Below are positions 50,970-56,123 of a DNA stretch of 64,000 nt, piece after piece. The stretch comes from Escherichia coli (GTDB taxonomy: Bacteria > Pseudomonadota > Gammaproteobacteria > Enterobacterales > Enterobacteriaceae). The position numbers and the translations under genes were made by a program. Where the stretch lies: NCBI RefSeq assembly GCF_003334815.1, contig NZ_QOWO01000017.1. One strand, 5' to 3'. Position 1 is the first letter of the stretch. Each line of letters opens with the position of its first letter. The notes under the pieces were generated by a model that was given only the letters and a program-made list of their open reading frames with translations, made no database searches and was not told the DNA's origin.

Positions 50970-52334
50970 ATGTCCACAATTACATTGTTATGCATTGCGT
51001 TAACTGGCGTAATCATGCTGTTGCTGCTGGTCATCAAGGCAAAGGTACAACCATTCGTTGCTCTGCTCCTCGTCAGCCTGTTAGTCGCACTTGCGGCGGG
51101 TATACCGGCGGGCGAAGTGGGTAAAGTGATGATCGCCGGGATGGGCGGTGTGCTTGGTTCCGTCACTATTATTATTGGTCTGGGCGCTATGCTGGGGCGT
51201 ATGATCGAACACTCTGGTGGTGCAGAGTCACTGGCTAATTATTTCAGTCGCAAGTTAGGTGACAAACGAACTATCGCTGCGCTGACTCTGGCAGCGTTCT
51301 TCCTCGGTATTCCCGTCTTCTTTGATGTCGGCTTTATTATTCTTGCGCCAATCATTTACGGTTTTGCCAAGGTTGCCAAAATATCGCCACTCAAATTTGG
51401 CCTGCCTGTCGCTGGGATCATGCTCACTGTTCACGTGGCGGTACCGCCGCATCCAGGCCCTGTCGCCGCAGCGGGGTTACTCCACGCAGACATCGGCTGG
51501 CTAACCATCATCGGTATTGCGATTTCTATTCCCGTAGGGGTTGTTGGCTACTTTGCAGCGAAAATAATCAATAAGCGCCAATATGCGATGTCAGTAGAAG
51601 TACTGGAACAGATGCAACTGGCTCCGGCCAGTGAGGAAGGCGCGACAAAATTAAGCGATAAAATAAATCCACCGGGCGTCGCGCTGGTCACCTCGCTAAT
51701 TGTTATTCCTATCGCGATTATCATGGCGGGTACGGTTTCCGCAACACTGATGCCGCCTTCGCATCCCCTGCTTGGTACGCTACAGCTGATCGGCTCACCA
51801 ATGGTAGCTCTAATGATTGCGCTGGTGCTGGCATTCTGGTTATTGGCTTTACGTCGCGGCTGGAGCTTACAACACACCAGCGACATTATGGGCTCAGCGC
51901 TTCCTACTGCGGCGGTAGTGATTTTGGTTACTGGTGCTGGAGGGGTATTTGGCAAAGTGCTGGTGGAATCGGGCGTCGGCAAAGCCCTTGCCAACATGCT
52001 ACAAATGATTGACCTGCCTCTGTTACCAGCCGCATTTATTATTTCACTGGCGCTGCGTGCATCGCAGGGGTCAGCAACCGTAGCAATACTGACAACCGGC
52101 GGGTTACTCTCAGAAGCGGTGATGGGATTGAATCCGATTCAGTGCGTATTGGTGACGCTGGCAGCCTGCTTTGGTGGGCTTGGTGCGTCACATATTAATG
52201 ACTCAGGGTTCTGGATTGTGACCAAATATCTGGGGTTATCGGTAGCAGACGGTCTGAAAACCTGGACAGTGTTAACGACCATTCTCGGTTTTACCGGATT
52301 CTTAATTACCTGGTGCGTATGGGCGGTAATTTGA
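50970..52334 (+). CDS. ygbN: GntP-family acid sugar permease YgbN
   Basis: 454 aa polytopic membrane protein recognised as YgbN. Confidence 0.9.
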   Translation: MSTITLLCIALTGVIMLLLLVIKAKVQPFVALLLVSLLVALAAGIPAGEVGKVMIAGMGGVLGSVTIIIGLGAMLGRMIEHSGGAESLANYFSRKLGDKRTIAALTLAAFFLGIPVFFDVGFIILAPIIYGFAKVAKISPLKFGLPVAGIMLTVHVAVPPHPGPVAAAGLLHADIGWLTIIGIAISIPVGVVGYFAAKIINKRQYAMSVEVLEQMQLAPASEEGATKLSDKINPPGVALVTSLIVIPIAIIMAGTVSATLMPPSHPLLGTLQLIGSPMVALMIALVLAFWLLALRRGWSLQHTSDIMGSALPTAAVVILVTGAGGVFGKVLVESGVGKALANMLQMIDLPLLPAAFIISLALRASQGSATVAILTTGGLLSEAVMGLNPIQCVLVTLAACFGGLGASHINDSGFWIVTKYLGLSVADGLKTWTVLTTILGFTGFLITWCVWAVI

Positions 52335-52341
52335 CCTTAAT

Positions 52342-52371
52342 AAAAAGGTCCGATGGGCATCGGACCTTTTA
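52342..52371. terminator. Bidirectional terminator hairpin between ygbN and rpoS
   Basis: Stem ggtccgatg/catcggacc flanked by an A-tract and a T-tract. Confidence 0.65.
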
Positions 52372-52381
52372 TTGTGCACAG

Positions 52382-52412
52382 AAAAGGCCAGCCTCGCTTG
52401 AGACTGGCCTTT
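52382..52412 (-). terminator. rpoS rho-independent terminator
   Basis: Minus strand reads GGCCAG-loop-CTGGCC followed by TTTTC, 16 nt after the rpoS stop. Confidence 0.65.
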
Positions 52413-52427
52413 CTGACAGATGCTTAC

Positions 52428-53420
52428 TTACTCGCGGAACAGCGCTTCGATATTCAGCCCCTGCGTTTGCAGGATTTCACGCAAACGGCGCAGGCCTTCA
52501 ACCTGAATCTGGCGAACACGTTCACGGGTGAGGCCAATTTCACGACCTACATCTTCCAGTGTTGCCGCTTCGTACCCCAGCAAACCGAATCGACGTGCCA
52601 GCACTTCACGCTGTTTGGCGTTCAGCTCGAACAGCCATTTGACGATGCTCTGCTTCATATCGTCATCTTGCGTGGTATCTTCCGGACCGTTCTATTTTTC
52701 ATCGGCCAGGATGTCCAGCAACGCTTTTTCGGAATCACCACCCAGCGGGGTGTCTACCGAGGTAATGCGCTCGTTAAGACGAAGCATACGGCTGACGTCA
52801 TCAACTGGCTTATCCAGTTGCTCTGCGATCTCTTCCGCACTTGGTTCATGGTCCAGCTTATGGGACAACTCACGTGCGGTTCGCAGGTAAACGTTCAGCT
52901 CCTTTACGATGTGAATCGGCAAACGAATAGTACGGGTTTGGTTCATAATCGCCCGTTCAATCGTCTGGCGAATCCACCAGGTTGCGTATGTTGAGAAGCG
53001 GAAACCACGTTCCGGGTCAAACTTCTCTACCGCGCGGATCAGCCCCAGGTTGCCCTCTTCGATAAGGTCCAGCAACGCCAGACCACGATTGCCATAACGG
53101 CGGGCAATTTTTACCACCAGACGCAAGTTACTCTCGATCATCCGGCGGCGAGAGGCGACATCTCCACGCAGTGCGCGACGCGCAAAATAAACTTCTTCTT
53201 CGGCCGTTAACAGTGGTGAATAACCAATCTCACCAAGGTAAAGCTGAGTCGCGTCCAACACACGCTGTGTGGCTCCCTGCGATAACAGTTCCTCTTCGGC
53301 CAAATCGTTATCACTGGGTTCCTCTTCTACTAAGGCCTTTTCGTCAAAAACCTCAACTCCGTTCTCATCAAATTCCGCATCTTCATTTAAATCATGAACT
53401 TTCAGCGTATTCTGACTCAT
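52428..53420 (-). pseudogene. rpoS: RNA polymerase sigma factor RpoS interrupted by an in-frame amber codon at Glu243 (TAG at 52692..52694); predicted product is residues 1-242
   Basis: N-terminal ORF (start [11 protein letters not shown] at 53420) ends ...LDILADEK-stop; the same frame continues [19 protein letters not shown]... to the normal C-terminus ...NIEALFRE. Confidence 0.9.
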
Positions 53421-53482
53421 AAGGTGGCTCCTACCCGTGATCCCTTGACGGAACATTCAAGCAAAAGCCTGGTTCCGCCGAT

Positions 53483-54622
53483 TTATCGCTGCGGCAAATA
53501 ACGCAGCGGGTTTACGGATTTCCCCTTGTAACGAATTTCAAAATGCAAGCGTGTTGAACTGGTTCCGGTGCTACCCATGGTTGCTATTTTTTGCCCCGCC
53601 TTCACTTCTTGTTGTTCCCGGACCAGCATTGTGTCGTTATGGGCGTAGGCACTCAGGTAATCATCATTATGTTTGATGATAATCAGATTACCGTAGCCGC
53701 GCAGCGCGTTACCAGCATAAACAACGCGGCCATCTGCGGTCGCGATAATTGCCTGTCCTTTGCTGCCTGCGATATCAATCCCCTTGTTGCCCCCCTCAGA
53801 AGCGCCAAAGGTTTCGATCACTTTGCCCTCAGTCGGCCAGCGCCAGGTGGAGATAGGCGTACTGGTTGATGTACTGCTGACAGTTGGCTCGGTTGTGCTT
53901 GCTGTTGGTACCGTTACAGGCGCTGTGACCGTGGTCGCAGCTGGCTTGTTGTTCGGCAACATTTTGTTAGCACTCTGTTCACCCGAAGATTCAGAATACG
54001 TAATTGTCGGTTGCGACGCAACAGCAACGGTGGAATTTTGTGCAGGCTTGATCACAACTCCTTGCTCTGCTGCGTCGGCCTGGGTAATGGCATTTCCGCC
54101 AGTGATTGGCGTACCGGAAGCATTACCCACCTGCAAGGTCTGACCAACGTTCAGCGCGTATGGTGCCTGAATATTGTTGCGCTGAGCAAGGTCACGGAAA
54201 TCGTTGCCAGTAATCCAGGCGATATAGAAAAGTGTGTCGCCTTTTTTCACGGTATAGGTACTGCCGCTATAACTGCCTTTCGGAATGTTCCCATACTGAC
54301 GGTTATAGACGATGCGTCCGTTTTCCATCTGTACCGGCTGCTGAGCTACTGGCTGCACTGGCTGGATTTGCGGTTGTTGAGTAGCCTGAATTTGTGGCTG
54401 CTGTACCGGCTGAATTTGCGGTTGCTGCGCTGTAGACGTCGTCCCCATTTTCGGCGGCGGCGTAATCAACATACCAGAATTAGTATTTGCAGGCGCATTG
54501 CCATTAACGGAGCTGACCGGTGCCGGTGGATTTGAAGTGTCAGAACAGCCTGCCAGCCATAGCGAAACCAGTGACAAAGCCGCAATGCGGCGAACGGTGA
54601 ATTTTGGGCTTCCCGCGCTCAT
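53483..54622 (-). CDS. nlpD: Murein hydrolase activator lipoprotein NlpD (LysM plus degenerate M23 peptidase domain)
   Basis: 379 aa; lipobox LAGCS; Pro/Gln-rich repeat region; LysM and M23 domains. Confidence 0.95.
54340..54432. repeat. Imperfect tandem repeats inside nlpD encoding the (Q)QPQIQ(P/A)V(Q) repeat
   Basis: Repeated ctgaatttg(c/t)gg(c/t)tg(c/t)tg units on the plus strand. Confidence 0.6.
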
Positions 54623-54761
54623 TTATCCCCCAGGAAAAATTGGTTAATAACCAGTGACATAATTACCGTGCAAGGCACCCTACTGAACACTGGAAAAGAT
54701 GTTCACGATACGCTGACCTGCGGCAAAATAACCAGGAAAAATCCAGGTATTTCCTCACGTT

Positions 54762-56123
<1,362 letters not shown>

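Follow-up and report, generated by a model that had tools for sequence, protein, structure and literature searches.

The window analysed here, a 64-kb stretch of Escherichia coli DNA, contains the gene order pcm (54762-55388), nlpD and rpoS, which is identical in K-12 and in all matches. On the minus strand, nlpD (53483..54622) encodes the 379-residue murein hydrolase activator lipoprotein NlpD, an assignment based on its open reading frame, on Pfam and on the annotation of every E. coli match. The exact protein is common in the species and occurs on no fewer than 1000 contigs. Over 25 kb, strain 52F4 has the most similar complete genome, with about 3 mismatches as estimated from the bit score. 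Along the nlpD-rpoS stretch the window differs from K-12 at 10 nucleotides, 6 of which lie in nlpD.

The translation begins with a lipoprotein signal peptide, recognizable by the lipobox LWLAGC with Cys26; neither A24 nor C26 varies across 39 species. Two Pfam domains follow, a LysM domain at residues 123-165 (54128..54256, minus strand; PF01476, E = 4e-12) and then a C-terminal M23/LytM domain (Peptidase_M23) at residues 279-372 (53507..53788, minus strand; PF01551, E = 5e-33). By eye, TRLHFE appears to stand where active M23 enzymes have HxH, and NlpD has been described as a dLytM factor with a degenerate LytM domain (PMC5533458). The layout reported for the K-12 protein is an N-terminal disordered linker, LysM, a second linker and the degenerate LytM domain, with both linkers predicted to be disordered (Tsang et al. 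2017, PMC5533458). Linker disorder is thus a prediction that rests on the literature and on amino acid composition; an AlphaFold2 model built from a 39-sequence alignment had a mean pLDDT of 37, with even the M23 domain below 50, and was too poor to bear on the matter.

Anatomy of the nlpD repeat

Between Cys26 and the LysM domain, nlpD carries three in-frame 24-nt units (54427..54356, minus strand), each encoding QQPQIQxx, followed by a degenerate 27-nt tail (54355..54329) that encodes QPVAQQPVQ. Together they form an array of 99 nt that corresponds to NlpD residues 66-98, of which 69% are Gln or Pro. The first unit, R1 (QQPQIQPV, 54404..54427), is identical to R3 (QQPQIQPV, 54356..54379) at 20 of 24 positions and to R2 (QQPQIQAT, 54380..54403) at 17 of 24, while R2 and R3 share 15 of 24. 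In DNA, identity between units therefore ranges from 62 to 83%. The peptide encoded by R1 and R3 is the same, and four synonymous changes separate the two units; throughout the QQPQIQ cores, all differences between units are synonymous. The initial annotation had placed a tandem repeat at 54340..54432 and assigned it to the linker between the lipid anchor and LysM. The repeat is real and its quoted peptide exact (residues 66-90), with coordinates 5-11 nt off, and the assignment agrees with Cys26 lying upstream and the Pfam LysM domain at 123-165 lying downstream.

Several perfect homologies persist within the array. The longest is a 12-nt direct repeat, CAGCCGGTACAG, whose copies at 54412-54401 and 54340-54329 bound the span 54329..54412 on the minus strand at a spacing of 72 nt. 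Others are 11 nt (CAACCGCAAAT, spacing 48 nt), 9 nt (CAAATTCAG, spacing 24 nt) and 8 nt (CAGCCAGT, spacing 9 nt) long. The last of these belongs to a 9-nt micro-repeat at the end of R3 and in the tail (54364-54347, minus strand), where two copies of CAGCCAGT(G/A) encode QPVQPV. The array differs from that of K-12 at a single site, 54404, which is GTA in the window and GTG in K-12, a synonymous change. Because R1 of the window ends in GTA, it forms the perfect 12-nt direct repeat with the tail, whereas K-12 does not have it. The length of the array can be read as the distance between the anchors GACGACGTCTACAGC and ATGGAAAACGGACGCATCGT.

The repeat is far clearer in protein than in DNA. A direct-repeat search returned 3 copies at a spacing of 24. 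When the summed pairwise matches of three consecutive 24-nt units were scored over all 72-nt frames of the 64-kb window, the array reached the maximum, 52 of 72, about 8 standard deviations above the background (mean 19.6, sd 4.05); only 10 frames attained this score, all of them over the nlpD array. A repeat that holds the maximum of the whole window is not a chance one. Tandem Repeats Finder called no array at this place, even at a minimum score of 30, since the matches between neighbouring units amount to no more than 17/24 and 15/24.

Length variation within E. coli and between species

Repeat length was surveyed in 5,426 complete E. coli genomes from RefSeq, a clonally biased set, with a 181-nt probe across the array that matched 5,420 of them. 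The canonical length was found in 5,406 of the 5,420 genomes (99.74%), leaving 14 length variants (0.26%): seven of -9 nt, four of +9 nt, and one each of -48, -72 and +48 nt. The number of 24-nt units was thus changed in three genomes, and these were also the only matched genomes aligning over less than 80% of the probe. Strain Z142-6 has lost 72 bp, with the two 12-nt direct repeats as the exact end points; in strain PEC411 the loss of 48 bp has produced an R1/R3 hybrid; and strain PapRG-04-4 carries a 48-bp duplication that raises the number of units to 5. Whole-unit changes step by 48 or 72 nt and never by 24, which is consistent with R1 and R3 being the most similar pair. Synthetic 2-unit and 4-unit probes found no genome that matched them better than the canonical array does (89.0% and 90.1%, as expected from a 24-nt gap).

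The smaller variants came to light through a 376-residue member of the protein cluster with a QPV deletion, which led to probes for the -9 and +9 alleles. Inspection of the sequences showed that these alleles carry one and three copies of CAGCCAGT(A/G), respectively, and the -9 protein is also present in a large protein collection. The seven -9 genomes are mostly from bovine isolates and may go back to a single event. In the one three-copy strain sequenced, every copy ends in A, giving a perfect 27-nt run. Every variant, large or small, is in frame (9, 48 and 72 nt are multiples of 3) and is located at the internal microhomologies. Since all are in frame, no polar effect on rpoS is expected from them.

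These counts are bounded as follows. The 90-95% identity band of the 181-nt probe holds 14 records, 11 of which are consistent with the -9 and +9 alleles (expected identities 94.5% and 93.7%), so that at most 3 further records could carry other indels of 9-21 nt. A further 157 genomes, picked at even intervals along the ranked matches and not counting the last row of each list, all gave a matched span equal to the query length; indels of 3-6 nt are bounded by this sample (0 of 157). The 99-nt array of the window occurs identically in 1,721 genomes and is the commonest allele. When this array served as the blastn probe, 61 records fell below 80% coverage and were not counted as variants; we judge most of them to reflect end-trimming of a short query at SNPs, as longer probes leave only 1-3.

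This census bears directly on the initial annotation, which had described the repeat as prone to slippage and variable in length between strains. Length variants do exist, and to that extent the description holds. Frequent variation is not what the genomes contain: 3 of the 5,420 differ in the number of 24-nt units and 11 differ by 9 nt in either direction. With 99.74% of genomes canonical, the outcome is close to the invariance across strains that the initial annotation had itself set against its proposal.

A side observation concerns gene models. In all five length-variant genomes examined for this, RefSeq starts nlpD 45 nt after the ATG from which the K-12 protein and the 379-residue proteins are read, and the annotated coding sequences (1023, 1047, 1143, 1104 and 1086 nt) are each 45 nt short. 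The TTG start at codon 16 in these annotations would remove the positively charged start of the signal peptide. The shortened genes are probably an annotation inconsistency that affects rare alleles.

Variation on a larger scale was followed in 80 loci of other enterobacterial species, giving an alignment of 81 proteins. Three units are present in E. coli, the cryptic clades, E. whittamii and two unnamed Escherichia species, and four in E. albertii. Citrobacter, Salmonella, Enterobacter and others have about 1-2 units, namely one clear PQIQPVQ and then a second copy that is degenerate. Lineage-specific expansions also occur, such as QPVQPVQPVQPV in Kosakonia cowanii and a threefold QTAPV in a Citrobacter. 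PQIQPVQ was found in 52 of the 81 species, and the corresponding residues 68-74 are 89-98% conserved across all 81. The columns of R3 (residues 83-89) are occupied in 6-28% of the species and are almost empty outside Escherichia, which marks this unit as an Escherichia-specific insertion relative to other genera. The length of the NlpD linker thus changes at the scale of genera and is fixed within E. coli.

The rpoS promoter within nlpD and the truncation of rpoS

The start of the rpoS promoter transcript has been placed 567 nt upstream of the rpoS start codon, within nlpD (PMC10948607; bioRxiv 10.1101/2023.11.09.566509), and weak promoters upstream of nlpD give rise to a bicistronic nlpD-rpoS transcript (PMC10948607; PMC2676305; bioRxiv 10.1101/2023.11.09.566509). 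The passages of PMC10948607 that cite Lange et al. 1995 and Landini et al. 2014 present rpoSp as the major intragenic promoter of rpoS. Counting 567 nt from the ATG at 53420 puts the start at about 53987 in the window, at nlpD codon 212. The hexamers could be read from the sequence, TTGCGT at 54021-54016 as the -35 and TATTCT at 53998-53993 as the -10 element, giving a core promoter at 53987..54021 on the minus strand. The rpoS 5' untranslated leader (53421..53987, minus strand), delimited from the literature and from synonymous constraint, overlaps the 3' 505 nt of nlpD. On this map the array (54329-54427) occupies positions -342 to -440 relative to the rpoSp start. It is upstream of the core promoter and outside the leader, and lies within the weak bicistronic transcript.

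Synonymous-codon entropy along nlpD, calculated from 77 non-Escherichia species and expressed as relative values, sets these regions apart. Over codons 25-185 it is 0.60-0.85, mostly at least 0.72, and the repeat itself is at 0.80-0.85. It falls to 0.24-0.47 over the promoter (54070-53954) and to 0.09-0.33 over the distal leader (53686-53483). In the same species, nucleotide identity is 90% or more all the way from -35 to -10, wobble positions included; in the same base-by-base comparison the wobble positions of the repeat vary freely. Constraint on the DNA beyond protein coding is present at the promoter and leader and absent over the repeat. The collapse of entropy over rpoSp and the distal leader provides a clean comparative footprint of regulatory DNA within a coding sequence. 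Together with PMC10948607, the conservation of synonymous sites and hexamers upholds the statement of the initial annotation that the main rpoS promoter lies inside nlpD. Its further suggestion, that variation in the repeat is relevant to rpoS, finds no such backing: the array ends 342 nt upstream of the start, shows no synonymous constraint and is present here as the commonest allele. From these positions and this constraint profile we infer that the array has no effect on rpoS.

Automated searches of the region were silent. A sigma-70 consensus scan of 53300-54800 called no promoter; TTGCGT agrees with the consensus at 3 of 6 positions and falls below the threshold, so that the result is not evidence against rpoSp. 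An Rfam scan of 52300-54800 returned one sub-threshold chance match, to cyano_het_sRNA (20.6 bits against a gathering score of 35.7), and no curated Rfam family in that interval matches the rpoS leader.

The 5' end of nlpD (54578-54622, the first ~23 codons) also has low synonymous entropy, 0.31-0.45, suggesting that the mRNA is constrained here by translation initiation or by the signal peptide. In the second NlpD linker, the most conserved stretch is residues 201-226, mostly 95-100% identical with few variable positions, and it coincides with the promoter. The conservation of this protein segment may be a by-product of constraint on the DNA.

The known rpoSp is matched here in position, and conservation covers its leader and both hexamers (-10 and -35), with the nlpD repeat outside the promoter, 342-440 nt upstream. 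Differences from K-12 are an A for G at -3 of rpoSp (53990) and changes at four leader positions. The A at 53990, the four leader changes and the state at 53324 (rpoS codon 33, GAG for Glu, where K-12 has CAG for Gln) are those of many natural isolates, as can be told from the many genomes in which a single base out of 2,401 nt is unlike the window.

The rpoS gene of this strain is truncated, as had been noted initially. Its open reading frame (52692..53420, minus strand) comprises 242 codons and a TAG at 52694-52692, while the ancestral frame, by comparison with K-12, extends to 52428. Codon 243 is GAG in K-12 and TAG here, a single G-to-T change on the coding strand, and the amber stop removes Sigma70_r4 (residues 262-315), that is, region 4, and also the last part of region 3. 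No perfect match to a 71-nt probe with the stop at its centre was found in 5,408 complete E. coli genomes, all being at most 98.6% identical, and the amber allele is private to this strain. A link between the amber mutation and the repeat allele was considered and rejected, the repeat allele being the commonest and the amber codon unique. Loss-of-function alleles of rpoS are known to be selected under nutrient limitation or storage (PMC2700278; PMC3484664; PMC3240573). The leftover 3' frame contains a 76-residue open reading frame from the ATG at 52658 (MKQSIVKWL...), and a separate region-4 fragment may be made from it by reinitiation.

Origin and significance of the array

As E. coli biology, nlpD, the linker it encodes and the rpoS promoter within it are already known. 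What the comparison of units and species adds is that the repeat is old: it is conserved as protein and has decayed as DNA. We consider it very probable that the array represents an octapeptide (QQPQIQxx) triplicated in frame, degenerate and followed by a QPV micro-repeat, in the Gln/Pro-rich N-terminal tether, that it is fixed at three units and that it has no role for rpoS. The tether would connect the outer-membrane lipid anchor to the peptidoglycan-binding LysM domain, with the array as a flexible spacer. Its source would be the older motif PQIQPVQ, conserved across enterobacteria, which was presumably duplicated locally in the Escherichia lineage. The copies would then have drifted at synonymous sites with their amino acids kept, so that perfect homologies of 8-12 nt remain. 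Misalignment at these microhomologies, by replication slippage or recombination, could generate the rare in-frame alleles in which the units number 1 or 5 or QPV has been lost or gained, three units being effectively fixed in E. coli. Expression of rpoS would proceed without a contribution from the array, as promoter and 567-nt leader begin 342 nt further downstream, and the amber codon would be an independent, private mutation.

Other readings of the same data can be weighed against this one. That the 24-nt periodicity is a chance by-product of Gln/Pro low complexity would fit the composition of the region (69% Gln+Pro) and the silence of Tandem Repeats Finder, but such a by-product would hardly score 8 standard deviations above the window mean in a register unique in 64 kb. 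Nor would it be expected to keep three QQPQIQ cores identical in protein, or to be extended by whole units in the same register, as happened in E. albertii and in PapRG-04-4; we regard this explanation as extremely improbable. The reading of the initial annotation, a slippage-prone array of the VNTR type whose length changes matter for rpoS through the promoter in nlpD, is correct about several facts. Length variants exist and fall at the repeat's own homologies, the rpoS promoter is indeed within nlpD, and unit number differs among Escherichia species. Still, a census in which 99.74% of 5,420 genomes are canonical largely refutes it, and its units are only 62-83% identical and left uncalled by Tandem Repeats Finder. 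The position at -342 to -440, outside the zone of synonymous constraint, the in-frame nature of all variants and the presence of the commonest allele in this strain likewise speak against it. We think it very unlikely to be right.

Somewhat better placed, although still improbable in our judgement, is the proposal that PQIQPVQ is a functional short linear motif, for a division-site partner or for the regulation of NlpD, and that the three copies in E. coli are held by selection. Across 81 species, conservation of residues 68-74 is 89-98% despite the predicted disorder, the amino acids of the units are kept while their synonymous sites diverge, and copy number is near-fixed within the species. 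A fusion with the N-terminal linker of NlpD alone is reported to be weakly enriched at midcell (Tsang et al. 2017, PMC5533458). The existence of 1-unit and 5-unit alleles in natural isolates argues the other way, as do the 1-2 degenerate units of other genera, and conservation of a Q/P tract could reflect a need for composition or length alone. We also know of no partner for the PQIQPVQ motif. If the proposal were true, the motif might explain the weak midcell affinity of the linker or contact a regulator of NlpD, and the three copies in Escherichia would be kept by selection and not by a mere lack of slippage.

For practical purposes, the preferred reading, a degenerate triplication fixed at three units, means that the nlpD repeat is unsuited to strain typing. 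Nor should rpoS phenotypes be put down to it, the rpoS defect of this strain being its private amber codon. As a by-product for specialists, the census records which microhomologies recombine in nature.

In relation to known systems, NlpD of E. coli K-12 (b2742), an outer-membrane lipoprotein and activator of the amidase AmiC, is matched here in gene, 379-residue length and domain order, with no substantive difference. The premature stop in rpoS belongs to the same class of mutation as the published rpoS polymorphism (Dong et al. 2009; Snyder et al. 2012; Spira et al. 2011), but the amber-243 allele, seen in none of 5,408 genomes, is without connection to the nlpD repeat. With coding VNTRs and contingency loci, the array shares head-to-tail units and rare copy changes at internal homologies. 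Unlike theirs, its units have diverged (15-20 of 24 positions identical), its longest perfect homology is 12 nt and its polymorphism is about 0.26%. In contrast to contingency loci, its length changes come in multiples of 3 and involve no on/off switching, so that each allele keeps the reading frame of nlpD.
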